The notes below the pieces were generated by a model. It saw nothing but the letters and a program-made list of their open reading frames with translations. It did not search any database and was not told the origin of the DNA. Position numbers and translations under genes: made by a program. Shown here piece by piece: positions 21,395 through 49,929 of a stretch of DNA of 64,000 bases. This DNA is from a candidate division WOR-1 bacterium RIFCSPHIGHO2_01_FULL_53_15. GTDB taxonomy: Bacteria; Margulisbacteria; WOR-1; O2-12-FULL-45-9; XYB2-FULL-48-7. Within the stretch, counting starts at the first letter, position 1. The number at the start of each line of letters is the position of its first letter. The stretch lies in NCBI GenBank assembly GCA_001772335.1, contig METM01000021.1, positions 57,130 to 121,129 of the forward strand. Direction: 5' to 3'.

Positions 21395-21467
21395 GAAACT
21401 TGGAAGACGAAACTCAAATATTAAAAGACTCGGCGAAGTCTTATTCTTGAGAAAGGGGAAAAAATTC

Positions 21468-30810: not shown

Positions 30811-31435
30811 ATGCGCTACGAAGAATTCAGGCAAAAAGTCAAAGGCCTGCCGCTCATCACCAGCCAGTTCATGGCCCTCTTGGCCGGCGCCGATAGAAGC
30901 GTTTTGGTCCAGTTCCGCCGTTGGGTCAAAGCCGGTAAGATCATTAAACTAAGAAAAGGACTGTACCTGTTGAACCAGAGTGACCGGCGGATCAATCCCT
31001 CACGGCTGTTTATCGCCAATGAGATCTATTCGCCTTCTTACGTCAGCCTGGAATATGCCCTGTCATTTTACGGGCTGATCCCCGAAAAAGCCGTCGATGT
31101 GACCTGCGTTACTTCAAAAAAAACAGCCAACTACAAAAACAGCCTGGGGCAATTTATCTACCAGCATATTAAGGAGCGCTGTTTTACCGGTTTCGAAGAA
31201 TTTAAAGATGAGGCGGGGTTAGTATATTTCATGGCCACGCCGGAAAAAGCAGCGGTCGATTTTCTTTACCTCAATCAGGATCGATTTAAGTCAGATTATG
31301 ATAAGCTGTTGGCCGGTTCTTTTCGTTTCCAGGACAAGGGATCTCTAAATGCAAAGAAATTGATGAGTTACGCGAAATTATTCAATTCCCGAAAATTGGA
31401 ACGCATTGTGAAAGCGCTGTCACGAGATTATAAAA

Positions 31436-31443
<8 letters not shown>
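30811..31443 (+). CDS. AbiEi-family (type IV TA antitoxin-like) regulator
   Basis: 210 aa. The N-terminus VLVQFRRWVKAGKIIKLRKGLYLL and the later SYVSLEYALSFYGLIPE are typical AbiEi_4 patterns. An AGGAG SD is present. Confidence 0.7.
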
Positions 31444-33645
<2,202 letters not shown>

Positions 33646-34323: not shown

Positions 34324-34354
34324 AAGCCCCGGAAAATTGTTCGGGGCTTTTTTT
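34324..34354 (+). terminator. intrinsic terminator-like hairpin in the leader of the TIM-like gene
   Basis: aagccccg / gaaaattgtt / cggggctt, followed by a run of T (7 T in total). There is no plus-strand gene upstream, so this is either an attenuator or the 3' end of a small RNA. Confidence 0.65.
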
Positions 34355-34420
34355 GTAAAAGTTTCTCGACTGAGTTCGAGACAATTTCTCGACAAGCTCG
34401 AAATAAAGGGGGAAAAGAAA

Positions 34421-35182
34421 ATGGCGATCGGCAGAACAAATATCATCGCGGCTAATTTAAAACTTACTTCTGGTTTGGGCAGGAAGGATGTGCGCGGCTA
34501 TCTTGGCCAATTGGGGACGCATCCGGCCCTTCAGTCTTCGAGTACGAGGGTTCGCGTTTATGCCTCTTTCGGAGTTTTACAAGGGCTGAAAAATGACGCG
34601 GCGGGGAGGGTCGCTCTGGGGGTTAAGAATTTTCATCTTGATAATACCCACCCATCGGTCGAAGATCTGCGGCAAATGAAGATCTGGCACGCACTGATCG
34701 GCCGGTCCGGTACGGAGCACGGAGTAACCGATGCGGCTGTGGCCCAAAAGCTGAAGGCCGCACTGGCCATGGACATCTTTGCCACGGTCTGCGTGGGCGC
34801 CAAAACTCATGATGATCTGGCCGAGCAGGTCCGCGAGGGGATAATCCCGGCTTTAAACACCCAAAGCCGCAAGCTTAGCGGGAAAGGGCCCGACCATCGA
34901 TTTGATATCGCTTATCTGCCGGGCCGGCAGCCGTTCCAAATGACCGACATAGAAGCCGCCTTCGCGGTTATCAAAGAAATTCTTTGGGAAGGGGGACACC
35001 AAAGTATAGTTGACCATGGGGATTTTCTATTTGGATTAGGCGGAAGCGTGAAGCCCGAAAATGCCCCGGAACTGCTTCGTCAGCCCTTCATCCACGGCCT
35101 TCTGGTTCGCACAGCTTCCCGAAGTGCGAATAATTTGATCGAAATGATCGATCTGGCGGAGAGGATCGGGAGTAGCGCGTAA
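34421..35182 (+). CDS. triosephosphate-isomerase-fold protein lacking the catalytic His and Glu (TIM-like, probable non-TIM function)
   Basis: ATG 34421 follows AAGGGGG. By-eye alignment to TpiA gives IIAANLKL~GNWKMN (Asn/Lys kept), ALIGRSGTEHG~IIGHSERR (His to Arg), TVCVGAK~LCIGE, IAYLPGRQPF~IAYEPVWAIG (Glu to Leu, loop 6 replaced) and GLGGSVKPENAPELLRQPFIHGLLVRTAS~YGGSVKPENAAEL..DIDGALVGGAS. Confidence 0.6.
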   Translation: MAIGRTNIIAANLKLTSGLGRKDVRGYLGQLGTHPALQSSSTRVRVYASFGVLQGLKNDAAGRVALGVKNFHLDNTHPSVEDLRQMKIWHALIGRSGTEHGVTDAAVAQKLKAALAMDIFATVCVGAKTHDDLAEQVREGIIPALNTQSRKLSGKGPDHRFDIAYLPGRQPFQMTDIEAAFAVIKEILWEGGHQSIVDHGDFLFGLGGSVKPENAPELLRQPFIHGLLVRTASRSANNLIEMIDLAERIGSSA

Positions 35183-35206: not shown

Positions 35207-38200
35207 ATGGTTTACAGAGTAAAGGCCAGAACGGTGGAAGGAAGACGGGTGGCGGGCTTATTGAGTACAGACAAATTCACAACGGCTAGGTTGATGGAGG
35301 CGAGGGCGGCAGAGAGAATCGGGTTCGGCGCTGGGGCTTTAAGTGTGGCGGCTTCGCTCCAGGTGCAACGGCTGGAAACGGCGGCGAAAAGGTCTTTTGA
35401 TGTCCTGCCGGCCTATTTTTTCGGCGACGGCAGATCGGAATTCAGGCCGGATGGCGGTTTTAAGCCGGATAAAGATACTTTAGGCGGCAAAGGCGCAAAT
35501 CTGCACAGCATGACCGAAGCGGGCATCTCGGTACCCCCTGGTTTTACCATTCCGACGACCGAAACCAACAGATACTTTGTTCAGGATAACGGCCAATTAC
35601 CGGATGGCTTAATGGATGTTGTTATGCAAAAAGTGGAAATGGTCGAGGCGGCCACGGGCAATAAGTTCGGCGATGAAGACCGGCCGCAGCTCTTCTCTGT
35701 CCGTTCCGGAGCTAAATTCTCCATGCCGGGGATGATGGACACTATTTTAAATCTTGGCCTGAATAATAAGACTGTCCTGGGCCTGGCCAAAGCGGCAAAT
35801 AATGAACGCTTTGCCTGGGACAGCTACCGGAGATTCATCCAGATGTTCAGCAACGTTGTCCTCGGCGTCAAAAAAGATGTGTTAGAGGAAATATTGAGCG
35901 AGAAGAAGGTCAGCCGTGGCGTGAAGAACGACACTGAATTAACTGTTGATGACTTGAAAGAGCTGGTGGCCGAATATAAGGCGAAATTGAAAGAATTGGG
36001 AGCCGAGGTCCCCCAGGACGAGCGGCGTCAATTGGAACTGGCCATTGAAGCGGTCATGAAATCTTCCAATAATGAGCGGGCCATCGTTTACAAGAGGGAC
36101 TTTAACATTCCCAAGGAGATCGTTTCAGCGGTCAATGTCCAGGCCATGGTCTTCGGCAATATGGGAGAGGACAGCGCGACCGGCGTGGGCTTTACGCGCA
36201 ATCCGGAGACCGGCGCCAATGAATTTTATGGCGAGTTCCTGTCGAACGCGCAGGGCGAAGACGTGGTGGCCGGCGTCCGGACCCCGCTCAAGCTCAAACG
36301 TCTGGCCGAGGTGATGCCCGAGGCCTATGCCCAGCTCAGGGAGGTCACCACGCGGCTCGAAAAATTCTTTCGCAATGTTCAGGATTTTGAGTTCACCATT
36401 GAAAGAGGCAAGCTGTATATGCTGCAGACCCGGGATGGAAAACGGTCCGCCCAGGCGGCCGTAAACATCGCGGTCGATCTGGTTGAGGAGGGGGCGATCA
36501 CAATTGAAGAAGCCCTCATGATGATCGAGCCGGAGCAGATGTCGCACCTGCTTCACCCGGTGTTTGATCCGGAGGAAAAGAAAGTGGCGATCAAGGCGGG
36601 GAGATTGCTGGGCCAGGGGATCAATGCTTCTCCGGGGGCGGCGGTCGGCCGCATAGAATTTACCGCGGAGGCGGTCGTTTTGGCAACCGCCAATGACACA
36701 AAAGACAAAAAAACAAAAGTTATTCTGGTGAGAAAAGAGACGAACCCGGACGATATCTCCGGGATGAAAGCCGCGCAGGGCATTTTGACGGCGACGGGCG
36801 GGGCAACCTCGCACGCCGCCCTGGTTGGCCGGCAGATGGGAAAGCCGGCGGTGGTTGGTTTTAGCGCCGCGGAAGTCGATGAGAAGGCAAGAACGATACG
36901 GATCGGGGATCGGGTCTTCAAAGAAGGGGATATTTTATCAATTGACGGCACGACGGGCGAAGTGTTCGCGGGGGAGATCATGACGCTCCCTTCCGAGATC
37001 AAGCGGGTCGTCGAAGGCCAGCTGAAGGCCGAGGACTCGCCGGTTTATCAACGCTACATGAAAGTCCTGGGCTGGGCGAAAGAGGCGGCTGAGCTGGAAG
37101 TTTGGGCGAACGCGGATACCGCCAAAGATGTCAAAATTGCCGATGCTTTTGAAGCGCAGGGGGTCGGGTTGGCCAGGACAGAGCACATGTTTTTCGGCGA
37201 CGACCGCATTCCTTACATGGTGGCGATGATCCTGTCGGAAACCCCGGCGGAGAAACAGCCGTTCCTTGACAAAATATTGGCAATGCAGAGGTCTGATTTT
37301 ATCTCTCTGTTTGAGGTGATGAAGGGGCGGCCGGTGACCATCCGAACGATCGACCCGCCTCTGCATGAGTTCCTGCCCAAAACCGACGCTGATATCGACA
37401 AACTGCTCTCTTCTATCCATTCGGTTGCCCTGGTGGAACAACTCGAGCGCAAGCTGGGGATTTCAAAAGAGGGGGTTACACGAGATGAATTGGGTGAAGA
37501 GCTCTGGCTGGCGCTCAGGGAAAAAGTGAAGCGGCGTTCCGCCGAATTGCATGAGGCCAACCCCATGATGGGGCATCGCGGCACCCGCCTCGGCATCACC
37601 AATCCGGAAATTACCGCCATGCAGGCGCGCGCGATCTTTGAAGCGGCGTTCGCGGTTGCCCGCAAAGGGATCCCCGTTAAACCAAAGATCATGATCCCGC
37701 TGGTCGGTTTTGCGGCCGAATTGAAAGACCAGGCCACGATAGTGAGGGAAGTCCATGCTGAATTGGAAAAAGAGCACGGCCCGATCGCTTTCCAGCTTGG
37801 CACGATGATCGAGGTGCCCCGGGGCGGTTTAACCGCGGACGAGATCGCCCTCCTGGCGGAATTCTTCTCTTTCGGGACCAATGACCTGCATCAATATACG
37901 CTGGGCTTCAGTCGTGACGACGCCGGCAAGTTTATCGCTCCCTACATTGACAAGGGGATCATTCCCGCGGACCCGACCCAGAAGATCGATCAGCCCGGCA
38001 CCGGCAAGCTGATGTGGCTGGCGGTCCAGCTGGGGAGAGAAACCCGGCCGGATCTGGAGATCGGAATTTGCGGCGAACATGGCGGGGAGCCGACTTCAGT
38101 GGAATTCTGCCACGCGCTTGGCCTGAACTATGTCAGCGCATCTCCTTACCGCATCCCGGTGGCGCGAATGGCCGCGGCGCAAGCCTGGATAAAAGAGAGG

Positions 38201-38257
38201 AGAATAGAAGACGAATTGAGAAAGTCGGCGAAGGTTCTGCAGGAAGCAAGCAAATAG
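35207..38257 (+). CDS. ppdK: pyruvate, phosphate dikinase (with ~65-aa N-terminal extension)
   Basis: 1016 aa with all three domains. ATP-grasp: LGGKGANLHSMTEAGISVPPGFTI and FSVRSGAKFSMPGMMDTILNLGLN. Swivel: GGATSHAALVGRQMGKPAVVG, with the His codon at 36812. PEP/pyruvate barrel: GLARTEHMFF, FSFGTNDL and GICGEHGGEP. Confidence 0.9.
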   Translation: MVYRVKARTVEGRRVAGLLSTDKFTTARLMEARAAERIGFGAGALSVAASLQVQRLETAAKRSFDVLPAYFFGDGRSEFRPDGGFKPDKDTLGGKGANLHSMTEAGISVPPGFTIPTTETNRYFVQDNGQLPDGLMDVVMQKVEMVEAATGNKFGDEDRPQLFSVRSGAKFSMPGMMDTILNLGLNNKTVLGLAKAANNERFAWDSYRRFIQMFSNVVLGVKKDVLEEILSEKKVSRGVKNDTELTVDDLKELVAEYKAKLKELGAEVPQDERRQLELAIEAVMKSSNNERAIVYKRDFNIPKEIVSAVNVQAMVFGNMGEDSATGVGFTRNPETGANEFYGEFLSNAQGEDVVAGVRTPLKLKRLAEVMPEAYAQLREVTTRLEKFFRNVQDFEFTIERGKLYMLQTRDGKRSAQAAVNIAVDLVEEGAITIEEALMMIEPEQMSHLLHPVFDPEEKKVAIKAGRLLGQGINASPGAAVGRIEFTAEAVVLATANDTKDKKTKVILVRKETNPDDISGMKAAQGILTATGGATSHAALVGRQMGKPAVVGFSAAEVDEKARTIRIGDRVFKEGDILSIDGTTGEVFAGEIMTLPSEIKRVVEGQLKAEDSPVYQRYMKVLGWAKEAAELEVWANADTAKDVKIADAFEAQGVGLARTEHMFFGDDRIPYMVAMILSETPAEKQPFLDKILAMQRSDFISLFEVMKGRPVTIRTIDPPLHEFLPKTDADIDKLLSSIHSVALVEQLERKLGISKEGVTRDELGEELWLALREKVKRRSAELHEANPMMGHRGTRLGITNPEITAMQARAIFEAAFAVARKGIPVKPKIMIPLVGFAAELKDQATIVREVHAELEKEHGPIAFQLGTMIEVPRGGLTADEIALLAEFFSFGTNDLHQYTLGFSRDDAGKFIAPYIDKGIIPADPTQKIDQPGTGKLMWLAVQLGRETRPDLEIGICGEHGGEPTSVEFCHALGLNYVSASPYRIPVARMAAAQAWIKERRIEDELRKSAKVLQEASK

Positions 38258-38286: not shown

Positions 38287-40965
38287 TCAGCGTTCAGGGA
38301 AGGGGACTCCGTTTCTTTCGCAAAGTTCTATTAGGCGTTGTACATCCCAGTTGGCGTAAAAATCGTAGAACTTGGTGTAAGGCTGGGCCAGCAGACCAAG
38401 AACTTCAGCGACATACCGATCGCTCTTCGGGGGAATGGCCTTTTTCACATCGGCCAGACTGATTCCGGTCAATTTTAATGTCATGAATTCGCGGACATTG
38501 CCGGTGTGCAGGAAAAGTGAATTGTCTTTCAGCCCCGTCTTTTCGATCTCCTTGCGCGCCCGATTAACCTCTCGCTCGCCGACCATCTCCAGCAAGCCGC
38601 GATATTTTTGGCACAAGACCCATTCATTAATGAGCTGAGCGATTTCCTTCGGGGAAAATACCCGCCAGAAAGCGACCGGCATTTCACCCGCCAGAAAGCG
38701 GCCGAGCATGAACGAGCCGGCGCTGTAGCCGGAGCGTTTTTCTTTTTCACAGCGGGCAAGGGCGATCTTATAAAATTTGAGCTTTTTATCCAAAGTTAAA
38801 TAATCAAAGATCACGAACTGGCTGTGGTGGTCCCCCAGGCCGGCGGCCAGGACGCCGTCAACATATGCCTCGGGATTGGCTTCGAACCAGGCGTTGGCCA
38901 ACGCGGCTTTTTTCTCCTCTTTTTTTTCGTTTCTCATCTCGACCAGGATCAGCCGGATCAGCGAGCCGAGATCAAGAATATTGGAGGCCTCTGACGCGCC
39001 GCCGGCCAGTTTTTGATATTTTCTGTAGGCGGCGGCGAGCGACTTAAAGAGCGATTCTTCGGCCGCTGTCAGATCAATTTTTTCACCCTCGAGATAGCGC
39101 ATGAAGCGGGCGGGGGTGAATTTGGCTTGCCCGAGCAGCAACACGGCGTGTTTGCTGGAGAGGGTGACCCAGTCACCCTCGTTGATCATTTGGCCGTCGG
39201 CTGACTTTAGCTTCTTGTTTCTGGCGTCCAGTGAAACGCCGCTCTCTTCAAGATTGAGGAGCGCTGGTATTCCGTGACCCCGCGAGGTTTGAACGACGTG
39301 GATCGCCGCCGGCGTCAGGCTGACGAGGCCGTCGACCCGGCTAAGAACAGGGGTGTCGGTCGGCGCAAATGTTTCTTTAGCCAGAATGACCTTTTCGCCA
39401 TTTTCTTTGGCGGTCACGGCGGCCGAGGCGGAGAAATAGACGCGTCCGCTGACGGCGCTCCTGGGCAGGACCGAAGCCCCTCGCGCGAAGAACGGCAGTT
39501 TGGCCAGCGATCCCGGATCGATCGCTTCCGACTCGACCTGCCTGATGTGATATGGTTTGATCAGTTCTCTGATCCGCGCCTCGGCGATCGTTCCCTGCCG
39601 GAACAACTCCATGACCGAGAGCAGGGTCCCGATACCGGTCAGTTCGGCCGGGTTGAGCTGGAGGAGGGCAAAGAGGTCGCTTTCGGCGGCGAACTCGACC
39701 GTGACCGGCGCCCGCAGGTATTTCTCAAGCGCGATGAGCTGCGGAGCGAAATGATAGACGGCGGGGAATTTTTCCCTGATCTCGGCCCGGCCAAGAAAAT
39801 CGGTCGTCTCGGGAGTGAGCACGCCTCCCGTCATGATCTCCTCGCCAAAGACGGAGCGGGCGCTCTCAAGCGACATGCCGGTCCCGGTCCGGGCGTGGCG
39901 GCTGAGCAGAACCCCGGCGTAGGAGCGCCGGCTGAGCGCGCTGCAGACCATCTTCTGGAAGATCATCGTCGGATACTGCTCCTCGCCGCGCATAAAGGTG
40001 CGCAGGAGGTCCAGGTTGTCGCCATAATCTTCGTAGGCCCTGGCCAGGAAGAAGACGACCTGATAATAAGGATCGGTGATGAGCCGCGGGTCCTTCCGCC
40101 TGATCATCGTCATCAGCTCATCAACCAGGGTCTGGTTGTCTTTGTGGCCGAGATCGGGCCTGACTTTGTGGCGGATCTTCTCGTATCCGGCCGGATCAAG
40201 CGCCCGCAGGATATTGCGGAGATTGTTCAGGATGATCCGGACGGCCGCTTCGTTGCCGTACCGCCGGGTCAGCGCGTCATAAGCGCTTTCGACGACGCCG
40301 GCGTTAAGATAAGTCGGCATGACGCCGGGGATGTAGGCCGGCATGGCGCAGCGCATCGCCGCCAGGAGAGGGTCTTCGGAGTGGCCGAATTGCTGGCCGG
40401 TCAGCTGTTCCAGGTTATACACCGCGTCGTGGATGTGCTTTTCGCGCTCTTTCAGGGTGAGCCGATATGCCCTGGCCGTCAGGAAACTAAAATCAGGAAC
40501 AGGATAGCCCTGCTTGATGAGGGCAAGGAGGACGGCGCCCTTGTTGCTGATCAGCTCTTCAGGATAGGCGGCGTCGGTCGTCGACGGGATGACGAATTCG
40601 TTCTCAGTGAAACGTACGCCGGAGAAATGAGGCGAGATCGCCGCCAGGGCGGTCTCTGCCTTGCTCCGGAGCTCTTTGTGCGCGCCAGTGTCGCCCTCTT
40701 TGGCTTTCAGTATCAGATCGAGATGGTCAAGCGCTCCCTGCGCTTGGTCGAATTCGGCGGAATCAAAATAGCGCAAAAAAGGGATGTCGGTGTCGCGGAC
40801 GCTGACGGCGGCCGGTCGGCCGGCATTATTAATGTAATCGACCTCGGCCGGCAGGTGGCCCGGCAGGGCGGCCGGTATCCGCCCGGCTGATCTCGTCGCT
40901 AATCTGTCATATAATGTACGGCGATTGACATAGCCGCCGCGCACCTGCAGGATCTGCCTGATCAT
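38287..40965 (-). CDS. PPDK-derived protein: ATP-grasp + phosphohistidine-swivel-like domains, with the PEP/pyruvate barrel replaced by an unrelated C-terminal region
   Basis: 892 aa. NKGAVLLALIKQGYPVPDF~GGKGANL..G.PVPPGF. PLLAAMRCAMPAYIPGVMPTYLNAGV~FSVRSGA..MPGMMDT.LNLGL. FGEEIMTGGVLTPET~GEDVVAGVRTP. SLTPAAIHVVQTSRGHGIPALL~GGATSHAALVGRQMGKPAVV, with the His codon at 39300-39298. None of the RTEHMF, GTNDL or CGE motifs is present. Confidence 0.65.
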   Translation of the reverse strand: MIRQILQVRGGYVNRRTLYDRLATRSAGRIPAALPGHLPAEVDYINNAGRPAAVSVRDTDIPFLRYFDSAEFDQAQGALDHLDLILKAKEGDTGAHKELRSKAETALAAISPHFSGVRFTENEFVIPSTTDAAYPEELISNKGAVLLALIKQGYPVPDFSFLTARAYRLTLKEREKHIHDAVYNLEQLTGQQFGHSEDPLLAAMRCAMPAYIPGVMPTYLNAGVVESAYDALTRRYGNEAAVRIILNNLRNILRALDPAGYEKIRHKVRPDLGHKDNQTLVDELMTMIRRKDPRLITDPYYQVVFFLARAYEDYGDNLDLLRTFMRGEEQYPTMIFQKMVCSALSRRSYAGVLLSRHARTGTGMSLESARSVFGEEIMTGGVLTPETTDFLGRAEIREKFPAVYHFAPQLIALEKYLRAPVTVEFAAESDLFALLQLNPAELTGIGTLLSVMELFRQGTIAEARIRELIKPYHIRQVESEAIDPGSLAKLPFFARGASVLPRSAVSGRVYFSASAAVTAKENGEKVILAKETFAPTDTPVLSRVDGLVSLTPAAIHVVQTSRGHGIPALLNLEESGVSLDARNKKLKSADGQMINEGDWVTLSSKHAVLLLGQAKFTPARFMRYLEGEKIDLTAAEESLFKSLAAAYRKYQKLAGGASEASNILDLGSLIRLILVEMRNEKKEEKKAALANAWFEANPEAYVDGVLAAGLGDHHSQFVIFDYLTLDKKLKFYKIALARCEKEKRSGYSAGSFMLGRFLAGEMPVAFWRVFSPKEIAQLINEWVLCQKYRGLLEMVGEREVNRARKEIEKTGLKDNSLFLHTGNVREFMTLKLTGISLADVKKAIPPKSDRYVAEVLGLLAQPYTKFYDFYANWDVQRLIELCERNGVPFPER

Positions 40966-40974
40966 AGCACTTTC

Positions 40975-41002
40975 TTATCGGCCAAACCGGCGGGAAATTT
41001 CA
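40975..41002 (-). promoter_or_regulatory. promoter-like motif copy 5 (minus strand): TGAAAT-N16-CGATAA
   Basis: The minus strand reads tgaaat ttcccgccggtttggc cgataa gaaagtgct ATG. The -10-like element ends 9 nt before the start codon at 40965, so the transcript would be nearly leaderless. Confidence 0.45.
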
Positions 41003-41035
41003 TTCAGAAGCGCTCGAGAAACGCCGAACTTTACT

Positions 41036-41063
41036 TGAAATTTTGTTTTATGGCCGCAGATAT
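41036..41063 (+). promoter_or_regulatory. promoter-like motif copy 4: (T)TGAAAT-N16-AGATAT
   Basis: cttgaaat tttgttttatggccgc agatat, 15 nt before ATG 41079. Confidence 0.4.
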
Positions 41064-41078
41064 ATAGCTGGGAGAAAC

Positions 41079-43589
41079 ATGATAAAGATCATTGAGCAGT
41101 CCCGGCCATATTTTTCGCGGAGCGCCATGTTGCGCGGCCTCAGCGAGCGGCTGGCGGGGAGAAAGACACCGGCAGCGAGCTTCGCGTTCTCGGTGCGCTT
41201 TGAGGGCGGCCGGGCTGGCGCTGCTGAGGTTAACCTGCGGGCTTACGACGCGCTCTATTTCAGCAACCCATATTCTCCCGAGGCGGCCGAACACCTCGAC
41301 CTTATCCTGCAGGCGCGGCGGGGCAATAACCGGGCTCAAGCGGCCCTGCGCAAAATGGACCAAGAGGCGCTTGACCGGCTGGGCCAGGCGAAGCCGGAGA
41401 GATCCCGGCCGAATAGGTTTGACGAATTTCTGCTTTCTTCCGGCGCTCCTCACGAGAGCAGCCGTCAGGAGGCGGGGAACAAGGGTTATAACCTCCTGGC
41501 TCTCAGCGCGCAGGGCTTTCCGGTCCCGTCTTTTTGCATTATCAAGGCCGGCTACCGGAAGGCGTTTATTGGGATCAACTGGTCAAAAAGAAACGCCGTC
41601 AGGCAATCAGCCCTGACGAAGCTGGAAGCCCTGACCGGCAAAAAATATGATAATGACGCCAGGCCGCTGCTGTTTGCCATTCGCTCCTGCTTGCCGGAAA
41701 GCTTGCCCGGGATCTTGCCGACCTATCTGGCGGTCGGCGCGACGCAAAGATCGCTCCCCGGCCTGGTCCGGCTTTACGGCGAGCGGACTGCCTATGAGCT
41801 GCGCGCCAATCATTTAATGAGTTTGCTGCTGGCGGCCGAGCCCATCCGCTATCAGCCGTTGCTTGACGGGCTGGGACAGGAAAGGAGCGGCATTCGGGCG
41901 CTGGTTTTTCGGCTCGAAAGGCTGGCCGAAGCGGACGAGCGGAGCCGTTTTTTTACCCCGGAGAGATGCGTAAATTTCTTGATCGACAGGATCGAACTGT
42001 TCTGCGGCGATAATCAGGAGATGCTGCGCTCACTGATGGACGGGGCGCAAACCGAACCGGCGATCATCCTGCAAGAGATGGTCGTGGGGAAAATAGCCGT
42101 CAATTCTTTTGCCGGTGTTTTTAACACGCGGGAGCCGGGCGGCGGGGAAAGGCGCCAGCTGCAGGTCCGCCCCGACGCTTTTGGCGAGGAGATCATGACC
42201 GGCGGCGCCGAGGTTGAAGAGATAACTTTTGCCGAGAGAGCCGTACTGCGGAAAAGGCACAGGGAGATCTACGAGATCATTGACTGTCTGATCGCTCTGG
42301 AGGCGGCCGAGGGCGCGCCGCTGACTTTTGAACTGACTTCCGAGCGCGGCATGATTGCCGTACTCCAGATGGATAAGACCTCATTGTCCGGTGTCGCCGC
42401 GCTCAGGTCGGCGGTCCGTCTCCTGCGGGAGGGCAAGATCAAGCGGAGCGGCCTGCTGGAGATCGTCAAGCCGTTCCATTTGCGCCAGCTCTTCTCCGAC
42501 ACGGTCGAAGGCAAGGACTCGCTGCGGCCTTTTGCCGGCGGCCTGAGCATTTTACCGCGCGGCGAGGTCTGCGCCCGGGCGTATTTTTCCGCGGCCAGCG
42601 CCCTGGCGGCGCGTGAGCGGGGAGAGAAAGCGATCATGATCCGGGAGATTTTTCAGCCAGCGGATGTCGAGGCGATGGTCGAGATGAGCGGGCTGGTGAG
42701 CGTCTCCAGGTCGCCGGTGCACGTGGCGCAGATCGCCAGGAAATACGGTATCATTGCCCTGGTCGGGCTCTCTGACAGCGGAGCGGTCCCGGTGATCAGG
42801 GAAAATGAACTTGTTTTGCCGGATGGCCGCCGGATCGGCGAAGGCAACTTTGTTGTCATCTCGAGCGAAGAGCAGAGGTTGTACCTTGGCGAAGCGAAAA
42901 CCGTCCCTTCAGGCATGACGGAGAGCAAAGAGCTCTGGCCGGAGCTTGTTTACTTCAAGGATGAGCTTACGCGTTTTGCGGCGGCGGAGGTCGCTGACGG
43001 CCAGGCGCTGGACAATCTGGTTGATCTGCTCTTGATATTCGGCGAAACGGAAGCGGCGCGGCAGCTGGTTAACCGCTGGTTCAGGGAAAGGACGGAAAGT
43101 TTCCTGTCGTATTTTGCGGCCACTCGGATCGGCCGCCACCGCAGCCGCCTCCAGCTTTTCAGCCTGCTTGATTTTCCCTTCAACCAGGCGGAGCTGATCA
43201 GGCGGTTGTCCGGGCGGCCAAAGAATGCGGACGCCGAAGGCATGTTCATCATCGGCCGGGCGATGGTCTGGGTCGAAGAAAAGCTTGGTGAGTCCGCCCT
43301 CAACCGGCTCTGCAGCGGTTTTTCCGGCGAGTTGACCCGGGCTATTCGGGCTGAGATGAAGCGGGCCAGGGAATATCTCGGCGTCGCGCGCGCCGAAAAG
43401 CCGGCGACCGATGGCCGGGCTTTAGGTAATTCGATGGAAAGAATTCTTCGGGCGGTTTTGGAAAGAAAAGAATCGGGCCTTTCAGAGGAAGAGGCGGACC
43501 AGGTGATCTGGCTCGCCATGCAGGACATCGATCCATTGCACAAGCCGCACAAGACGATCGCGCGCGCTCTCGGCGAATTAAAAAAATAA
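41079..43589 (+). CDS. PPDK-derived protein, paralogue of 38287-40965 (ATP-grasp + swivel-like, no PEP/pyruvate barrel)
   Basis: ATG 41079 follows GGGAG. Contains NKGYNLLALSAQGFPVPSF, PLLFAIRSCLPESLPGILPTYLAVGA, FGEEIMTGGAEVEE and VSVSRSPVHVAQIARKYGIIALVG (His codon at 42720). Its N-terminal extension shares HLDLIL.A..G with its paralogue. The C-terminal ~290 aa is unrecognised. Confidence 0.65.
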   Translation: MIKIIEQSRPYFSRSAMLRGLSERLAGRKTPAASFAFSVRFEGGRAGAAEVNLRAYDALYFSNPYSPEAAEHLDLILQARRGNNRAQAALRKMDQEALDRLGQAKPERSRPNRFDEFLLSSGAPHESSRQEAGNKGYNLLALSAQGFPVPSFCIIKAGYRKAFIGINWSKRNAVRQSALTKLEALTGKKYDNDARPLLFAIRSCLPESLPGILPTYLAVGATQRSLPGLVRLYGERTAYELRANHLMSLLLAAEPIRYQPLLDGLGQERSGIRALVFRLERLAEADERSRFFTPERCVNFLIDRIELFCGDNQEMLRSLMDGAQTEPAIILQEMVVGKIAVNSFAGVFNTREPGGGERRQLQVRPDAFGEEIMTGGAEVEEITFAERAVLRKRHREIYEIIDCLIALEAAEGAPLTFELTSERGMIAVLQMDKTSLSGVAALRSAVRLLREGKIKRSGLLEIVKPFHLRQLFSDTVEGKDSLRPFAGGLSILPRGEVCARAYFSAASALAARERGEKAIMIREIFQPADVEAMVEMSGLVSVSRSPVHVAQIARKYGIIALVGLSDSGAVPVIRENELVLPDGRRIGEGNFVVISSEEQRLYLGEAKTVPSGMTESKELWPELVYFKDELTRFAAAEVADGQALDNLVDLLLIFGETEAARQLVNRWFRERTESFLSYFAATRIGRHRSRLQLFSLLDFPFNQAELIRRLSGRPKNADAEGMFIIGRAMVWVEEKLGESALNRLCSGFSGELTRAIRAEMKRAREYLGVARAEKPATDGRALGNSMERILRAVLERKESGLSEEEADQVIWLAMQDIDPLHKPHKTIARALGELKK

Positions 43590-43646: not shown

Positions 43647-46600
43647 ATGGGAGGAAAGACAATGATTAGAGTTGGAGAACGAGTTGACCGTCTGGCGACC
43701 AGGGTGATGACGCCTATCGTTTCTAAAATGGCGGGCAACCGCACGCTTGGCAATTTAGCAATGAGCGCCTCTTACCGGACAGCCCTGGCGGCTGATCTCG
43801 CTGGCTTCAGATCGTGGCAGATGGGGAGCGCCCTGCAAAGAGCGGCCGATCTGCAAGGGGTCGAAAACTATTCCGCCCTCATGAACCGTTATGCGCCTTT
43901 ATCATCGTCTTTCCTCCCGGGACCGCTGCAGCCTGCCAGCGGGTCGTACCTGGAAAGAGGCTGGGTCATAGCCAACCACAAATTAGTTTCTTTTCATGCC
44001 GCTTTTATTTCTTCGGTCTTGAGTTTGTCTGATGATGTCCAGGGGAAACTGGAAACCCTGAAATTCATGTTCCTCAGCACCGAAACGGTCGTTTCATCGG
44101 CCATGCTTTATCTTTCCTGGCACGCCGGCATTGCTATCCACGAAATGGGCCACTACCTGACCGCGGCTAAATTGACGGCGCTGAACAAGGCTTCTCAAGA
44201 AGCAGCTGATAGCATGAAAGACAAAGGGTTGTTGTCGAAAGTCGGCTGGTACTCGAAAATGTTCATGACCATCCCCTGGGGAAAATTTGAAGGCGTCAAA
44301 AATGACGGCGGCAATTATTCGCCGGATTCGCCTTACAACCTCGCGGTCTCCGCGGCGGGCCCGAGATGGAGTTCATACCTGGCGCTTGTCGCCCTGCCGG
44401 CCGCGACCGCGGCGATCTCGGCCGGGCTTATCTTTGGCAGTGAGACAGCCACATACATTGGCCGGTTCCTTCTGGGGCCTGGCGTGGTTGGCTTGCTCGA
44501 CCGGCTCCTGGCCGATCCCGGAAAATTGAAGGAATTTAACACCCGCGAGGAGCGGGCGAAGGTGGCGGCGGCAGAAGCAACGCGCCGAGCGGCCGAAATG
44601 GGCGACCTGGCCGAGGAACTAAGCAATATCAGGCAGACGCTGATAAATTCCCGCATGGTCACGATTACTCTGGCCGACGGATCGAAAGTTTCCGCCCCCT
44701 GGCAGTGGAGGAATTGCGCGATGGGCGGCCGCCACACCGAGAAGGAATATCCGGAGAGCAATATCAGCATGCAGGAAAGCATGTTCATCCCCCTCTCGGC
44801 CAAAACTTATGAGGATGCCCAGGAAATGACCCTAAAACTGCAAACCAGATTAAAAGAGATCATTGAAAAGTCGCCCGGCGGCAAGGTCATGGGGATCGGG
44901 TTGGAGGGCGGGATAGCGCCTTATCTTGAGAAAGAAGCGGGCGACAAGGTGCCGGAGCAAAGATTATGGAGGTTGATGAAGCAGGCGATCCTTGATTGCG
45001 GCTACATCCCGGGCAAAGATGTCGCCATCGCGCTTGACCCGGCCGCTTCGGAGCTGGAAAATGCCTATCGCAAACAGAACAAAATGCCCGATTCGGTCGG
45101 CAGGTATTATTTCTGGCGCGGCAAAGAGAATATCTCCATGTCGCGGGATGAAATGCTGGCGCTTTACAAAGAGGCGATCGAAAAAGACGGCGTGCCGATC
45201 ATTTCCATTGAAGACGGTTTTGGTGAAAGGGACCATGAGGGCTGGGGATTGTTGATGAAGGAAATGGGGGACCGGCTCTTTGTCATCGGCGACGACCTGG
45301 TGACGACCAATGACGCCATCATCGAAGAGGGAGCGCGCAAAGGCCTCATCAACGCGGTTCTGGTCAAACTCAACCAGATCGGCACGGTTTCCGAAGCGGT
45401 CCTGGCCATGCTGACCGGTATGGCTTACGGGGCGGAGATGATCATTTCTCACCGCTCCAAATCACCCAACGATCCGTTTGAAGCCGACGTCTCAACGGCC
45501 ATGAACGCAGTCGGCCAGAAAACCGGCGGCGGCGCCAACACGGAGCGTTTGCAAAAATACGGCCGGGTCGTCGAAATATTATCGTTTGCCGAAAACACCG
45601 GCCGGCCTTTGACCGGATCGGAAAAACAGGAATCCCTCAGATTGCTGCAGGAACTGGTCAATGAATTGACCGGTCGGACTGACGTCTCCGTTCTGCCTGA
45701 GATGGCCGATCGCGACATTTCTGAATTAATGTTCCGCTTGCTGGCGATCGAATCGGTGATCGGCACAGAAGAGCCGACTAACGCCGGCATCCCATCCGCC
45801 AAAGCCACGCTCTTATTGAGCCGCAGCGGGGGCGTCCGCTTTACCGGTTCAACTCCGCTCGGGACCTCGGCCGGTGAAACCGAAGCGATCCATCTGGTTG
45901 ACAGCATCATCGCGCCGGATGAGGTCACGGCTAAATATCCCGACCTGTTCAATGTCGTTCCCGAAGATAAGACGCTCCGCTTTAAGAAGGATGTCAGGCG
46001 GGGGTATGTTATCGCCAAAAATGACGCGGCTTTACTGGTCATGTTTGATCGGGCCAAACGCTATGACGGCAAGGGTTGTCTGACTGCCGCCGGCAACATT
46101 GAGACCATTTTGGCCAAAGCTTTCAAGGGCAAGCGGGTCTCCAGCCTGGGCAGCCTGGCCGAGATCGACGCCGAGCTTCTGCGGCTGGAGAAAGAACAAG
46201 CTGTGGCCAGGGGAATATTGGCTGCGGATGCGCCAGTTGACGATCAGATCCATGTCATGCAGCGGAAGGGAACGATCGGCATGAATGCCATCCTTTCCAT
46301 GTCGCTGGCTCTTGGCCGGGCATTAGCGGCCAGCCAGGGCAAGGAATTGTGGCAGTTGATCCGTGAAAGCGCAATGGATGTGATGGCCAAATTTGTAGCC
46401 GCCCATTCGGCCGACCCGGCCAAAAAAGATGTCCGGGCCCTGAAAGCGATGAATATTGACGATCTGCGAGTACTTTTCCGCGAAACTGCAAAGCGGTTAA
46501 TTGCCGAGGGCAAAGAAATCCATGGCGTCCTGCGCGAGCTCCTGCCCGTTTATGCCTTGCCGGAAGACGTCCGGGCGCGCGCCATTTTTACCGACCGGCT

Positions 46601-47180
46601 CGTCATTAGCCAGCTGGGCAAACTGAGCCAGCGGCGGATGGCAATTCTCAATAAGATTTTTGAGATCGAAGGTTCGCTCGTGTATAACGTTGAGTTGCGC
46701 AATCTGGGCGAAAAAGAGGTTCCCTATCTTCATGTCCGGCCCGGCTCAAAACAGGGCTTGGGTTCCGCCTATGTCTCACGGGCGGATGCGGGCTTTACTG
46801 CCGCCTCTACCCACAAGGCCGATACAATCATTCAATCCGGCATTTGGATCAGCAACCTGGGCCTTGATGGGCAAAGCGAAGCATTTGGCAATCGTCACTA
46901 CGTGGCCATTCCGCACAGAACGGGAGACAAAACCGGTGAGATCACCTTGTTATTTGGCCGCTTCAGGAAAAATGTGTCATTGGCGGAGCGGAAGGAATTG
47001 TTTGCCGATGAGATCGGGAGTGTTTTACGTTTTATCGGAGACGAGAAGATCGACATAACCGATCCGATCATGCGTGAAAAGATTGATGCGGCATTATTGC
47101 TGATCCCGCTCCACGAGTTTTTCGAGCGCGATAAAAAGGGCCTTTACGTTAAATATGTTAAGCCGGCGCTGACAAGCTAA
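43647..47180 (+). CDS. 1177-aa multidomain protein: hydrophobic HExxH N-terminal region + circularly permuted enolase + unknown C-terminal domain
   Basis: The N-terminal third has LSWHAGIAIHEMGHYLTA (HExxH in a hydrophobic stretch) and a later LLGPGVVGLLDRL, both reminiscent of M50. The enolase barrel comes first: AMGGRH (from 44715), MQESMF, GLEGGIAP, LDPAASE (D at 45036), SIEDG (E at 45210), IGDDL (45291), VKLNQIGT (K at 45366), SHRS (H at 45450) and QKTGGGANTER (K at 45519). The enolase N-domain follows: PLGTSAGETEAIHLVD (S at 45867), RYDGKG and GMNAILSMSLALGRA. The start may be ATG 43662, which follows GGAGG. Confidence 0.75.
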   Translation: MGGKTMIRVGERVDRLATRVMTPIVSKMAGNRTLGNLAMSASYRTALAADLAGFRSWQMGSALQRAADLQGVENYSALMNRYAPLSSSFLPGPLQPASGSYLERGWVIANHKLVSFHAAFISSVLSLSDDVQGKLETLKFMFLSTETVVSSAMLYLSWHAGIAIHEMGHYLTAAKLTALNKASQEAADSMKDKGLLSKVGWYSKMFMTIPWGKFEGVKNDGGNYSPDSPYNLAVSAAGPRWSSYLALVALPAATAAISAGLIFGSETATYIGRFLLGPGVVGLLDRLLADPGKLKEFNTREERAKVAAAEATRRAAEMGDLAEELSNIRQTLINSRMVTITLADGSKVSAPWQWRNCAMGGRHTEKEYPESNISMQESMFIPLSAKTYEDAQEMTLKLQTRLKEIIEKSPGGKVMGIGLEGGIAPYLEKEAGDKVPEQRLWRLMKQAILDCGYIPGKDVAIALDPAASELENAYRKQNKMPDSVGRYYFWRGKENISMSRDEMLALYKEAIEKDGVPIISIEDGFGERDHEGWGLLMKEMGDRLFVIGDDLVTTNDAIIEEGARKGLINAVLVKLNQIGTVSEAVLAMLTGMAYGAEMIISHRSKSPNDPFEADVSTAMNAVGQKTGGGANTERLQKYGRVVEILSFAENTGRPLTGSEKQESLRLLQELVNELTGRTDVSVLPEMADRDISELMFRLLAIESVIGTEEPTNAGIPSAKATLLLSRSGGVRFTGSTPLGTSAGETEAIHLVDSIIAPDEVTAKYPDLFNVVPEDKTLRFKKDVRRGYVIAKNDAALLVMFDRAKRYDGKGCLTAAGNIETILAKAFKGKRVSSLGSLAEIDAELLRLEKEQAVARGILAADAPVDDQIHVMQRKGTIGMNAILSMSLALGRALAASQGKELWQLIRESAMDVMAKFVAAHSADPAKKDVRALKAMNIDDLRVLFRETAKRLIAEGKEIHGVLRELLPVYALPEDVRARAIFTDRLVISQLGKLSQRRMAILNKIFEIEGSLVYNVELRNLGEKEVPYLHVRPGSKQGLGSAYVSRADAGFTAASTHKADTIIQSGIWISNLGLDGQSEAFGNRHYVAIPHRTGDKTGEITLLFGRFRKNVSLAERKELFADEIGSVLRFIGDEKIDITDPIMREKIDAALLLIPLHEFFERDKKGLYVKYVKPALTS

Positions 47181-47221
47181 ATTGTTTAGAAACTGTTCCA
47201 AATAACATGGGAGGGGAAAAA

Positions 47222-47428
47222 ATGCTAAAGGAATTCCGCTGCAAATTCTGCCACCGCCTGCTGGCCAAAGTCGGCGAGGGATCGAAAGTCGAGATCAAGT
47301 GCCCCAAATGCAAAACGCTGAGCCTCTATAATGAAGAAACGGTCGTCGTCTACGAAGTGCCCGAGAACAACGTCACCAAAAAGATCATCGAGCGCGGCTG
47401 GGTCAAGTACGACGTGATCCAGAACTGA
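47222..47428 (+). CDS. Com-family zinc-ribbon protein
   Basis: ATG 47222 follows GGGAGGGG. FRCKFCHRLLAKVGEGSKVEIKCPKCKTLSLY matches the Mu Com pattern RCxxCxKLL.....EI.CP.CK. Confidence 0.55.
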   Translation: MLKEFRCKFCHRLLAKVGEGSKVEIKCPKCKTLSLYNEETVVVYEVPENNVTKKIIERGWVKYDVIQN

Positions 47429-47446: not shown

Positions 47447-48748
47447 ATGAGCATTAAGCTAAATCCGACCCATTTAAGGCATTTTCGACCGATAAACACC
47501 ATATCAATCGGTCGGGGAGCGACCGTTGCGTTAAAGGTTGATTTTAACGTGACGATAAAAGACGGGAAGATTCAGAACCCGGAGAAAATTAGAGCCGCTT
47601 TTAGGACTATTGACCATTTACTGGCGTCGGGCGCAAATATTGTAATTTATACTCATCTGGGCCAGCCCAAGAAGGGCTGTGAGGCAAAGACATCCCTGAA
47701 CCTCGTGGCTGATTTCTTGGCCGAAAAATACGGCAGGGACACGGTTATTAACGGGGAATCGTTAATTACGCCGGATGAAAACGGTTTTCTGCCGACGGAA
47801 CAATATATTAATAAGGCCGTGCGAGAAGCCGCGGTCGGCCTGGGCGGCAAGGCCAGGATATTGTTGATGCCGAACGTGAGATGGGCGGCTTATGAACAGG
47901 CCAAACCGACCGATCCCGGTCATCAAGCACTGGCTCAAGCCATGCTGGGACTCTCCGATGGCTTTGCAGTTTTTGACGCCGCGGCGGTCTGGAATAAGGA
48001 GCATGCTTCGATCACAACCATGCTCCGGCTGGCCGGCCTGAACAATATCGCCTGGGGTTTCCATGCTCATGAAATGGCTGAACTGCTGGTGAGAAGGTTT
48101 ACCGGCGACATACCGCGGCCGTATGTTCTGCACATTTCCGGCACAAAGGCGGATAAAATGGGTTATATCCTTGATTTTCTGGGTAACCCGCAAATTGACT
48201 CCATTTTAGTTTCGGGCAATATCGCCAACGGTTTGATGGAGGTTTTGGGCAGGTCTGTCGGCGCCGCGGCGGGAACCTACGGCGCGCCCGAGTTGGAAAA
48301 AGCGAGAAGAATCGTAAACCATCCGCGCTTCGGCGGTGCGGTTTCCCTGCCGGTTGATTTTATTATTGCCAGACCGGACGGGTCTGACCGCCGGTATTTG
48401 GCTCAAGGAGAAATTATCCCCGAAGGCTTCAGGCAGTTTGATATCGGCAGAGAGACCGCTTCTCTCTACGCGAAAATACTGGCTACGGCCGGCCTGGCTG
48501 TTAACTCCGGTGTCCCGGGCGCTTTTGACTTTGGCAACCCGCCGTTTGAAGAGGGGACAAAGGTTGTCCTGCCCGGCTTTGCAAGAGCCAAGCAGAGCAT
48601 TAATCTCGGCGGTGACGGCGGGATCGCCGCGGAAAAATACCTGACGCCGGAAGAGCTGGCGCGGACCGAAGTTTTAGTCGCGGGCGGTTCTTTCCTGCAC
48701 GCCATGGCGCACCAGACCTTCCCCGTGGCCGAAGTATTCTTAAATTAA
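47447..48748 (+). CDS. phosphoglycerate-kinase-fold protein, strongly divergent (PGK-like)
   Basis: 433 aa. ALKVDFNVTIKDGKIQNPEKIRAAFRTIDHLLASGANIVIYTHLGQPKKG~RVDFNVP..G.I..D.RI.A.LPTI..L...GA.V...SHLGRP. Also PNVRW~ENVRF, DAAAVWNKEHAS~DAFGTAHRAHAS, ISGTKADK~GGSKVSDK, NSGVPGAFDF~WNGPMGVFE, LGGDGG~GGGDT and VAGGSFLHAM~STGGGA.LE. Confidence 0.7.
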   Translation: MSIKLNPTHLRHFRPINTISIGRGATVALKVDFNVTIKDGKIQNPEKIRAAFRTIDHLLASGANIVIYTHLGQPKKGCEAKTSLNLVADFLAEKYGRDTVINGESLITPDENGFLPTEQYINKAVREAAVGLGGKARILLMPNVRWAAYEQAKPTDPGHQALAQAMLGLSDGFAVFDAAAVWNKEHASITTMLRLAGLNNIAWGFHAHEMAELLVRRFTGDIPRPYVLHISGTKADKMGYILDFLGNPQIDSILVSGNIANGLMEVLGRSVGAAAGTYGAPELEKARRIVNHPRFGGAVSLPVDFIIARPDGSDRRYLAQGEIIPEGFRQFDIGRETASLYAKILATAGLAVNSGVPGAFDFGNPPFEEGTKVVLPGFARAKQSINLGGDGGIAAEKYLTPEELARTEVLVAGGSFLHAMAHQTFPVAEVFLN

Positions 48749-48828: not shown

Positions 48829-49896
48829 ATGAGCGGAGTTGGAAAGGCAACGGTTAATTTGATGAGGTTGGGCAGGAACGGGCTGCACGCGCCGGGGCTA
48901 AGATCTGCGGTGATCAAGAATAATTTTAAGGCCGCGCTGGATAGATCGAGGGGCAACGCGACGACTTATCCGATCGATCATATCGAGGAGCACGGGCCGG
49001 CCCACTATTTTGTCCGGGGCATGCTGCGCAGTTTTGATCCGGGCGCGGTAGTCGAAGTCGCCCGCGAGGGGGGCGTTATGGCCATGGCGGTGTTGCCGGG
49101 GCTGGGCCAGCAGATCGGCCAGCTGACCAAAGGCGACATGCCGCTGATCTGGAAGCTTAACCGCGGTTCGGGCGCGAAGGTCAATGGCGATGCTACCACC
49201 GTCAGACTTTACAGTGACGTTGATAAAGCGATGAGCGTTGCCGTTGATAACGGCGCCAGGTTCTGGGGCGCGACTTTTTACAACGGCTCGGCCAATGTTC
49301 CCGACATGATCCAGCAGCTGGCTGAAATGGACGAAGCCGGCGCGCGCCACGGCCTGGGCGGCGTGGTTTGGAATTATCCGAGGGGGAGCGAGATTCCGAA
49401 AGGGCATGACGCGGATATCATGTATCAATTAGAGGGTTTTGAGCGGATAATCAACGCTTGTCCGGGCAGCCTGGTTCTGGTCAAGGAGAAGGTTTCCACC
49501 CTGCCCGGGACGGTCGCGGATTGGGAGGCGGGAGAGATAGAAAAGGTTGGCCGGGGCGAAGGCGCCTGGGGCAAACCCGGGACAAAAGGGGTTAAGGACG
49601 AGGTTGTCCGAACCTTTCTGGCCATGAATCGCGCCGTCCATATCGCCTTTATGGTCGAGCTTCAGCACAATCAGGGGATTGCCAGCTTGATGTCGGGCGG
49701 AGCGCCGCAGGAACGCGAAAAATTCGAAGCCGATCTAAATGACGGTATCGGCCCTGATCGGCATGTCGCGTTCATCGCCGGCCGTTCGACCACCAATGAA
49801 ATAAAGTACCAGGTTGACGAATATGATATTTCCGGCGCGGTCAGACACATGCACATGTTGAGGGACGCGGCGCCGAAAGTTGTCATAGAAGGATAA
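48829..49896 (+). CDS. class I aldolase-fold protein (FbaB/DhnA-like), divergent
   Basis: 355 aa with an AAGGAGG SD. TYPIDHIEEHGP~ILPVDQGVEHSA. GATFYNGSANVPDMIQQLAEMDEAGARHGLGGVVWNYPRG~[47 protein letters not shown]~ADIVKQK (Schiff-base Lys kept). SLMSGGAP and FIAGRS~ILGRK. The E. coli FbaB sequence was recalled from memory. Confidence 0.55.
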   Translation: MSGVGKATVNLMRLGRNGLHAPGLRSAVIKNNFKAALDRSRGNATTYPIDHIEEHGPAHYFVRGMLRSFDPGAVVEVAREGGVMAMAVLPGLGQQIGQLTKGDMPLIWKLNRGSGAKVNGDATTVRLYSDVDKAMSVAVDNGARFWGATFYNGSANVPDMIQQLAEMDEAGARHGLGGVVWNYPRGSEIPKGHDADIMYQLEGFERIINACPGSLVLVKEKVSTLPGTVADWEAGEIEKVGRGEGAWGKPGTKGVKDEVVRTFLAMNRAVHIAFMVELQHNQGIASLMSGGAPQEREKFEADLNDGIGPDRHVAFIAGRSTTNEIKYQVDEYDISGAVRHMHMLRDAAPKVVIEG

Positions 49897-49929
49897 GTTT
49901 GCGATAAGTCAGCAGGAGGGATTTTGGCC

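Follow-up and report, generated by a model that had tools for sequence, protein, structure and literature searches.

A 64,000-nucleotide stretch of DNA from a candidate division WOR-1 (Saganbacteria) bacterium of Rifle groundwater (RIFCSPHIGHO2_01_FULL_53_15; contig METM01000021.1, positions 57,130 to 121,129; the whole stretch is called the window here) carries two divergently transcribed genes, A and B, whose products keep the ATP-grasp domain and the phosphohistidine swivel domain of pyruvate phosphate dikinase (PPDK) and carry a helical domain in place of its barrel. Judged from their sequences, A and B represent an unnamed and widespread branch of the PPDK superfamily, a new variant with a novel domain. 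We lean, with some reserve, towards the view that the two proteins are nucleotide-dependent, self-phosphorylating phosphotransferases which use the histidine of the swivel and act together with EnoL, an enolase fusion protein encoded next to B, at the node of 2-phosphoglycerate (2-PG) and phosphoenolpyruvate (PEP).

Genes A and B and their PPDK-derived domains

Gene A (38287..40965, minus strand) is an open reading frame (ORF) with an ATG start that encodes 892 aa, and gene B (41079..43589, plus strand) encodes 836 aa. They belong respectively to a common clade of PPDK-like proteins and to its rare sister clade, called A-type and B-type below. The ORF of B opens with a TTG at 41043, while the ATG at 41079 yields the 836-aa protein, and the N-terminus read from this ATG (MIKIIEQSRPYF) parallels both the N-terminus of A (MIRQILQVRGGY) and the family consensus. 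A spacer of 113 bp (40966..41078, no strand) lies between the two genes. A first-pass annotation of this DNA had given the same coordinates and lengths for both ORFs and the same spacer, and these were borne out. It had also placed one promoter-like motif for each gene in the spacer, which was not supported: a consensus scan found no sigma-70-like site between 40966 and 41078, although promoters of another type are still possible. A and B are paralogues, with 32% identity over 820 columns (E=1e-103).

The relationship to PPDK was analyzed with the genuine PPDK encoded next door (35207-38257). In BLASTP alignments with this protein, A showed 23% identity over 565 columns (E=1e-25) and B showed 25% identity over 525 columns (E=1e-24), and both alignments stop just past the swivel domain. 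When the family profile was compared with a PPDK profile by hhalign, residues 136-622 of A were aligned with residues 89-599 of PPDK at a probability of 100% (E=6.7e-39), with nothing aligned beyond. A search of the PDB sequences with the family profile (hmmsearch) found residues 16-516 of the C. symbiosum PPDK structures 1dik/2dik (E=4e-43). An AlphaFold2 model of full-length A, made from a 66-sequence alignment, had a mean predicted local distance difference test score (pLDDT) of 89.9 and a predicted template modelling score of 0.81; in it the swivel domain spans about residues 500-612 and the helical C-terminus residues 620-892. In a Foldseek comparison of this model with the PDB, PPDK 1kbl was matched at E=3e-30, the rifampin phosphotransferase RPH at E=5e-7 and HpeI (9goj) at E=1e-4, the last in the ATP-grasp domain. 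The swivel domain of A superimposed on the phosphoryl carrier domain of PPDK (2fm4) with a template modelling (TM) score, normalized to the target, of 0.84 and a root-mean-square deviation of 2.2 Å. These results agree with the claim of the first-pass annotation that A and B align with PPDK through the nucleotide-binding and swivel domains. Of the corresponding Pfam models, hmmscan gave no match to PF01326 in A or B, where several homologues have a precomputed match, and PF00391 was matched weakly at residues 528-595 of B (22.0 bits, cut-off 23.1) and not in A.

Three of the domains of A precede its helical C-terminus. The N-terminal extension (residues 1-135; 40561..40965, minus strand) is family-specific and falls outside the alignment with the PPDK profile. 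It consists of beta strands and helices that are confidently modelled over about residues 1-125, has conserved positions at R9, Y12, G36, G49, D60, A88, R89 and G91, and gave no match in Pfam. The HLDLIL motif that had been noticed in this shared extension is present at position 81 of A and position 72 of B. The PPDK-type ATP-grasp domain (residues 136-500; 39466..40560, minus strand) was delimited by the PDB profile search, hhalign and tables of site residues, and the phosphohistidine swivel domain (residues 501-615; 39121..39465, minus strand) by the Foldseek match to 2fm4. In B, on the plus strand, the ATP-grasp domain covers about residues 129-492, the swivel domain about 493-607 and the helical C-terminal domain about 608-836.

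The swivel histidine is His556 in A (CAC, 39300-39298, in the context AAIHVV) and His548 in B (CAC, 42720-42722, in the context SPVHVA). Both align with His455 of PPDK, and this histidine is invariant in 66 of the 66 aligned members as well as across clades A, B and F (the last described below), so its retention at these codons, as stated in the first-pass annotation, held when conservation was checked in the family. The equivalents of K22, R92, G101, E323 and Q335 of PPDK are likewise invariant across the three clades. In the ATP-grasp domain of A the kept residues are K142, R205, G214, E424 and Q436, while T422 stands for D321 and N438 for R337. Two further invariant residues, H473 and R502, are new to the family.

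The helical C-terminal domain

The C-terminal domain of A (residues 616-892; 38290..39120, minus strand) is all-alpha in the AlphaFold2 models and has no known fold relative. Modelled by itself, this segment of about 270 aa gives helices only, with a pLDDT of 91.4, and the model of the whole protein contains no beta strand past residue 612. The C-terminal domain of B is also helical, shorter and more divergent than that of A. Foldseek comparison of the domain with the PDB returned nothing significant (best E=0.9, TM score at most 0.26), nor was there a significant match in BFVD, a match among the PDB sequences, or a match in Pfam even at E<=10. The proposal that the domain is novel was thus upheld by the structural search. 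Furthermore, a phmmer search of 1.84 billion representative proteins with the domain retrieved 81 proteins, all of which are members of the family or fragments of them. In these matches the domain occupies about residues 610-900 of proteins of about 890 aa, the sole exception in architecture being a protein of 1550 aa. The domain is new and restricted to the A/B family.

Loss of the PEP-utilising barrel, also claimed in the first-pass annotation, was confirmed. PF02896, the barrel model, had no match in A or B at E<=10, and the neighbouring PPDK contains the motifs RTEH, GTND and CGE, none of which occurs in A or B. A cryptic TIM barrel in the C-terminus was considered and rejected, since Pfam, hhalign and AlphaFold all failed to detect one and the barrel motifs are missing.

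Five residues of the domain are universal in all clades, namely N691, H713, G755, E781 and Y788 (numbering of A). In the A-type proteins the invariant residues include G750, F752, W767, K831 and P862, and the conserved polar residues are R620, R623, R648, N691, H713, C739, E774, E781, K787, K831 and D849. Inspection of the surroundings of His713 did not reveal an HPt-like HxxKG motif.

Distribution and clades of the family

More than 238 homologues of A, of about 890 aa, were found at 42-48% identity, with 48% to a Saganbacteria homologue; nearly all are named hypothetical. They occur in Acidobacteriota (Terriglobia, Aminicenantes, Vicinamibacterales), Cloacimonadota, Elusimicrobiota, Bacteroidales, Saganbacteria and others, and a scan with one genome per species found a relative in at least 374 species genomes. 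Such identity across phyla, together with so many species, indicates an activity under selection rather than decay. A literature search found no paper on the family.

The B-type is rare, with three other full-length homologues. In a neighbour-joining tree the B-type proteins are sister to all A-types, and A and B together stand apart from the PPDKs, including truncated forms resembling the mycobacterial protein VadK. Two such truncated PPDK-like proteins (P0245 and P0280) retain D321 as well as R337, and their branches lie outside the clade formed by A and B. The age of the B-type clade, as sister to the A-types as a whole, rules out a recent duplication of A as the origin of B. A third clade, the F-type, is represented by the 1550-aa protein P0326 (locus L092, 5408-10060), a tandem of two PPDK-like units, each of which has a swivel histidine and the C-terminal domain and is without the N-terminal extension. 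Identity between clades A, B and F amounts to no more than 25-30%. One B-type protein (P0242) comes from a 6-kb contig (L089, GCA_048887365.1) assigned to the metagenome-assembled genome (MAG) of a 'Candidatus Hodarchaeota archaeon'; either the contig was mis-binned or the gene reached an Asgard archaeon by lateral transfer.

EnoL and its association with the family

The gene for EnoL (43647..47180, plus strand, 1177 aa) follows B on the same strand after a gap of 57 bp, and its product is a likely functional partner of A and B. It is composed of an M50-like membrane domain (HEMGH at 165-169), an enolase barrel (348-644), an enolase N-domain (about 720-905) and a C-terminal extra part of about 270 aa. 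Enolase_C of Pfam was matched at 9e-51, and Enolase_N falls after the barrel, which amounts to a circular permutation. EnoL is 35% identical to the canonical enolase and scores 218.4 bits on TIGR01060 (cut-off 300). Across 59 diverse members the equivalents of the enolase residues H159, Q167, E168, E211, D246, E295, D296, D320, K345, H373, R374, S375 and K396 and of S39 in the Ser-loop are all invariant. Hence EnoL shares the catalytic, Mg2+-binding and Ser-loop residues of canonical enolase, and differs from it by the N-domain placed after the barrel and by the fused membrane protease-like domain.

In that hydrophobic N-terminal domain HExxH, AGP and Asp motifs of the kind seen in M50 site-2 proteases are invariant, HExxH and Asp across the same 59 members, and the domain is a candidate M50 peptidase. 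Peptidase_M50 (PF02163) matched 23 of 24 EnoL N-terminal fragments (best E=2.4e-7), the EnoL of the window itself scoring 12.8 bits against a cut-off of 27.2, and a search of the PDB sequences with the domain gave no match. EnoL has more than 1000 homologues, which are about 900 aa long in Planctomycetes and Terriglobia, and no description of it was found in the literature. The EnoL matches of 1666-1888 aa are tandem duplications of EnoL. A fusion of a PPDK-like protein with EnoL was sought and ruled out, since these long proteins are EnoL tandems and P0326 is a tandem of PPDK-like units.

The surroundings of the family outside the window were surveyed in 80 related A-type loci, in which 974 flanking ORFs were clustered de novo. 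EnoL was the single conserved neighbour that emerged. It adjoins the A-type gene in 31 of the 80 loci, from Terriglobia, Elusimicrobia, Saganbacteria and one Deltaproteobacteria MAG, and its arrangement varies: immediately convergent in Terriglobia, 0-6 kb away in Elusimicrobia and divergent in Saganbacteria. The other clades show the same association. A B-type gene lies directly upstream of EnoL in the window and in locus L087 and beside split EnoL genes in L088, and a 975-aa EnoL lies directly upstream of the F-type gene for P0326 in L092. As the association recurs in three clades, in four or more phyla and in three or more arrangements, we consider a functional link of the A-, B- and F-type proteins to EnoL very likely.

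PPDK, PGK, TIM, aldolase, FBPase and iPGM were not conserved neighbours in the 80 loci, with the exception of an FBPase-like gene in Saganbacteria. No full PPDK was present in any of them either, the query having matched only the ATP-grasp and swivel domains of the A-type gene. The first-pass annotation had linked A and B to both an enolase-like and a PGK-like neighbour; the former link is supported by synteny in several phyla, whereas the latter is not conserved elsewhere.

Genes of the histidine-kinase type make up about 2% of the flanking ORFs, a rate resembling background. In the groups with no EnoL within 10 kb of the A-type gene (Aminicenantes, Cloacimonadota, Bacteroidales and Clostridia), the gene next upstream frequently encodes a sensor kinase or a GGDEF protein. 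Four loci of Cloacimonadota and Bacteroidales without an adjacent EnoL (L064, L065, L044 and L006) have, immediately upstream of the A-type gene and on its strand, a large sensor gene encoding a dCache-PAS-HisKA_2 kinase, a PAS hybrid histidine kinase or a REC-PAS-GAF-GGDEF protein. These sensor neighbours hint at a signalling role for the A-type protein.

Comparison with known systems

PPDK (TIGR01828; C. symbiosum structures 1DIK/1KBL) has the ATP-grasp domain and the phosphohistidine swivel in the same order as A and B. In A and B, in contrast, the TIM barrel is swapped for the helical domain and an N-terminal extension of about 130 aa is added; K22, R92, the G101 loop, E323, Q335 and His455 are kept, and D321 and R337 are replaced. 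The scores of A and B on TIGR01828 are 124.8 and 138 bits, below the PPDK equivalog level (cut-off 843.45).

VadK (Rv1127c) of M. tuberculosis is a barrel-less descendant of PPDK that autophosphorylates on its swivel histidine in an ATP/Mg-dependent manner and regulates partner metabolic enzymes (PMC13400623). With about 490 aa, it is simply a truncated PPDK that has no replacement domain, whereas two additional conserved domains are present in A and B, and on the truncated-PPDK model NF004531 (PRK05878) A and B score 101.1 and 122.8 bits, respectively, against a cut-off of 456. VadK is the closest functional precedent for A and B.

RPH (5HV1) combines an ATP-grasp domain and a swivel histidine with a non-barrel acceptor domain (PMC4844700). 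Its order, however, is ATP-grasp, RIF-binding domain and C-terminal swivel, while the swivel of A and B is central; it lies on the PEP-synthase-like branch, while A and B lie on the PPDK branch; and the acceptor domains are unrelated. On the RPH model NF041857, B scores 15.9 bits (cut-off 999) and A has no match. The analogy with rifampicin phosphotransferase drawn in the first-pass annotation thus stands in its principle and fails in domain order and branch. HpeHI, MarK and PigC/HapC are reportedly further offshoots of the dikinase superfamily in which the swivel histidine phosphorylates new acceptors. They have other acceptor modules, belong to the PEP-synthase-like branch and are without the C-terminal domain, the N-terminal extension and the enolase-fusion partner of A and B. 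Taken together, model scores and domain make-up indicate that A and B are neither PPDKs nor VadK orthologues nor RPHs.

Other features of the window

The region of the window around A and B is a glycolysis/gluconeogenesis supercluster, and the locus also turned up on contigs of 20-99 kb. Ahead of A and B the order is two sets of genes for 2-oxoacid:ferredoxin oxidoreductases, an AbiE pair, canonical enolase, tRNA-Gly, TIM and PPDK; after B and EnoL it is a Zn-ribbon gene, PGK, a DeoC-type aldolase, FBPase_2/metallophosphoesterase, an AAA protein and iPGM. The PPDK (35207..38257, plus strand, 1016 aa) is genuine, with all three Pfam domains and 1172.6 bits on TIGR01828. It is unusually long, having an N-terminal extension of about 85 aa ahead of the TIGR01828 match and an extended linker between swivel and barrel.

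Four of the genes encode divergent versions with weak Pfam matches, all on the plus strand: TIM (34337-35182, E=5e-15), PGK (47447-48748, E=6e-49), the DeoC/LacD-type aldolase (48829-49896, E=1e-9) and FBPase_2/metallophosphoesterase (49924-51420, E=5e-32). In comparison, the canonical enolase (32224-33627, minus strand) has a strong Pfam match and iPGM (52730-54367) is well above the Pfam cut-offs. The tRNA-Gly(GCC) (33570-33642, minus strand) overlaps the 5' end of the listed enolase ORF, which opens with TTG at 33627; since Enolase_N is matched only from residue 43 of this ORF onwards, the true enolase start must be further downstream.

Just after EnoL lies a gene for a Com-like Zn-ribbon protein of 73 aa (47207..47428, plus strand); PF10122 is matched in loci L001 and L004, and the gene recurs close to EnoL and an FBPase-like gene in a Saganbacteria MAG (L004). 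An inserted AbiEi-like/AbiEii toxin-antitoxin pair (30811-32227, plus strand) separates the oxidoreductase cluster from the canonical enolase. The two consecutive 2-oxoacid:ferredoxin oxidoreductase gene sets (21366-30652, plus strand) include an unusual 925-aa protein (27875-30652) with a weak TPP_enzyme_C match only and a 475-aa poly-ferredoxin. PADLOC gave zero matches for A, B and EnoL, and an anti-phage defence system was rejected.

Discussion

In the role that we favour for A and B, a nucleotide bound in the ATP-grasp domain would phosphorylate the swivel histidine (His556 in A, His548 in B), the carrier domain would then swing away as in PPDK, and the phosphoryl group would be handed on at a site formed by the helical domain, in which all clades share His713. 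A and B would work with EnoL and hence at the 2-PG/PEP node. Their part may be one of coupling or control, with EnoL reading the state of phosphorylation of the swivel protein or having it passed on, in the manner of VadK. We slightly favour such coupling over a kinase for small molecules; the points in its favour are the protease-fusion partner, the signalling neighbours found elsewhere, the changes in the ATP-grasp site and the resemblance of the helical domain to a scaffold. A and B probably act as a dimer, since the tandem fusion P0326, in effect a natural tandem form, fits a dimeric unit, and at this locus A and B may possibly form a heterodimer.

Several observations weigh against the proposed role. 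D321 is replaced by T, M or L and R337 by N or D in every A-, B- and F-type member, while all compared PPDKs keep D and R. In C. symbiosum PPDK, D321 lies in the essential nucleotide/Mg site and R337 in the site of the gamma-phosphate and Pi; the PDB entry 2dik is the structure of the R337A mutant. The GG-x-T-S-H motif flanking the swivel histidine is altered in the family as well. Catalysis at the ATP-grasp site may accordingly be slow or draw on a different donor, or the site may do no more than bind nucleotide, and genuine dikinase chemistry in A and B is not assured. The family-wide loss of D321 and R337 suggests a nucleotide chemistry altered from the classical dikinase reaction with ATP and Pi, e.g. 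one without the Pi-dependent step or with a donor lacking a gamma-phosphate. Moreover, the C-terminal domain is without a recognisable catalytic fold, its non-significant fold neighbours being helical-repeat scaffolds (TPR, HAT, 14-3-3). As for the partner, no EnoL was found within 10 kb of the A-type gene in Aminicenantes, Cloacimonadota, Bacteroidales and Clostridia, adjacency is also missing on the closed chromosomes OY969762.1, OY969586.1, OY781097.1 and OZ245940.1, the EnoL of Planctomycetes stands alone, and the partnership of A-type protein and EnoL is not obligatorily syntenic. Because the EnoL-linked loci are mostly from Terriglobia, part of the synteny reflects shared ancestry.

Alternatively, A and B may be dikinases or kinases of small molecules that work on their own, in which the C-terminal domain is a new acceptor-binding, catalytic domain and the phosphorylated swivel histidine phosphorylates a common C3 metabolite. 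The substrate might be pyruvate, converted to PEP with the new domain as a non-homologous substitute for the PEP barrel, or glycerate, converted to 2-PG; EnoL would share the product merely as a neighbour in the pathway. We hold this to be possible though rather doubtful. It agrees with the location of the genes within the supercluster, where B heads an apparent operon with EnoL, the Zn-ribbon, PGK, aldolase and FBPase-like genes, with the very high conservation across phyla, in many of which the gene stands alone, and with the many conserved polar residues in the A-type C-terminal domain. All catalytic residues of enolase being kept in EnoL, PEP/2-PG would be the shared metabolite. The other characterised offshoots with swapped domains all phosphorylate small molecules, as is the case for RPH (PMC4844700) and, reportedly, for HpeHI, MarK and HapC. 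Nevertheless, several of the residues conserved in the A-type C-terminal domain are not kept in the B- and F-types, no known small-molecule-binding fold was found, the genes immediately beside the A-type gene in Cloacimonadota and Bacteroidales encode sensor kinases and GGDEF proteins instead of metabolic enzymes, and the loss of R337 and D321 would, judging by mutants of the C. symbiosum enzyme, cripple a classical dikinase.

That same loss, with the changed T-S-H context, would fit A and B as pseudoenzymes or scaffolds whose ATP-grasp domain senses adenine nucleotides without phosphotransfer and which allosterically regulate or anchor EnoL or signalling proteins; the scaffold-like fold neighbours and the signalling genes next door in some phyla point in the same direction. 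A pure pseudoenzyme is nevertheless improbable, because the swivel histidine, K22, R92, the G101 loop, E323 and Q335 are strictly invariant in at least 66 sequences of three clades as distant as 25-30% identity, and the fold of the swivel domain is preserved. It hardly seems conceivable, finally, that A and B are ordinary paralogues of PPDK or PEP synthase with a barrel diverged past recognition: their length is near that of PPDK and the first two modules are in the same order, but a purely helical C-terminal model at pLDDT 91 is incompatible with a TIM barrel, hhalign aligned nothing past residue 622, and neither PF02896 (E<=10) nor RTEH, GTND or CGE was present.

A more far-reaching form of the coupling between A/B and EnoL is that the proteins constitute a previously unknown two-protein, membrane-anchored machine, in which the swivel shuttles between the ATP-grasp domain and the EnoL barrel, docked via the helical domain. 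We regard this as unlikely but not far-fetched. If true, it could be read in two ways. The enolase barrel might stand in for the PEP/pyruvate barrel and couple 2-PG/PEP to nucleotide phosphorylation, or phosphorylation might gate the M50 intramembrane protease and thereby form a PEP/adenylate-charge checkpoint on regulated intramembrane proteolysis.

The scaffold of PPDK and the other PEP-utilising dikinases is a textbook example of a swivelling-domain enzyme, and each case in which its acceptor module was swapped or lost (RPH, PigC, GWD, VadK) has revealed new chemistry or regulation. The offshoot described here is large and unannotated, has a domain of new fold and a diagnostic change in the nucleotide site, and is tied to an undescribed enolase fusion. 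Its study may extend central metabolism by a new reaction around PEP and 2-PG in bacteria that abound in soil and sediment (Terriglobia, Aminicenantes, Cloacimonadota); alternatively, it may bring out a new link between the glycolytic state and intramembrane proteolysis.

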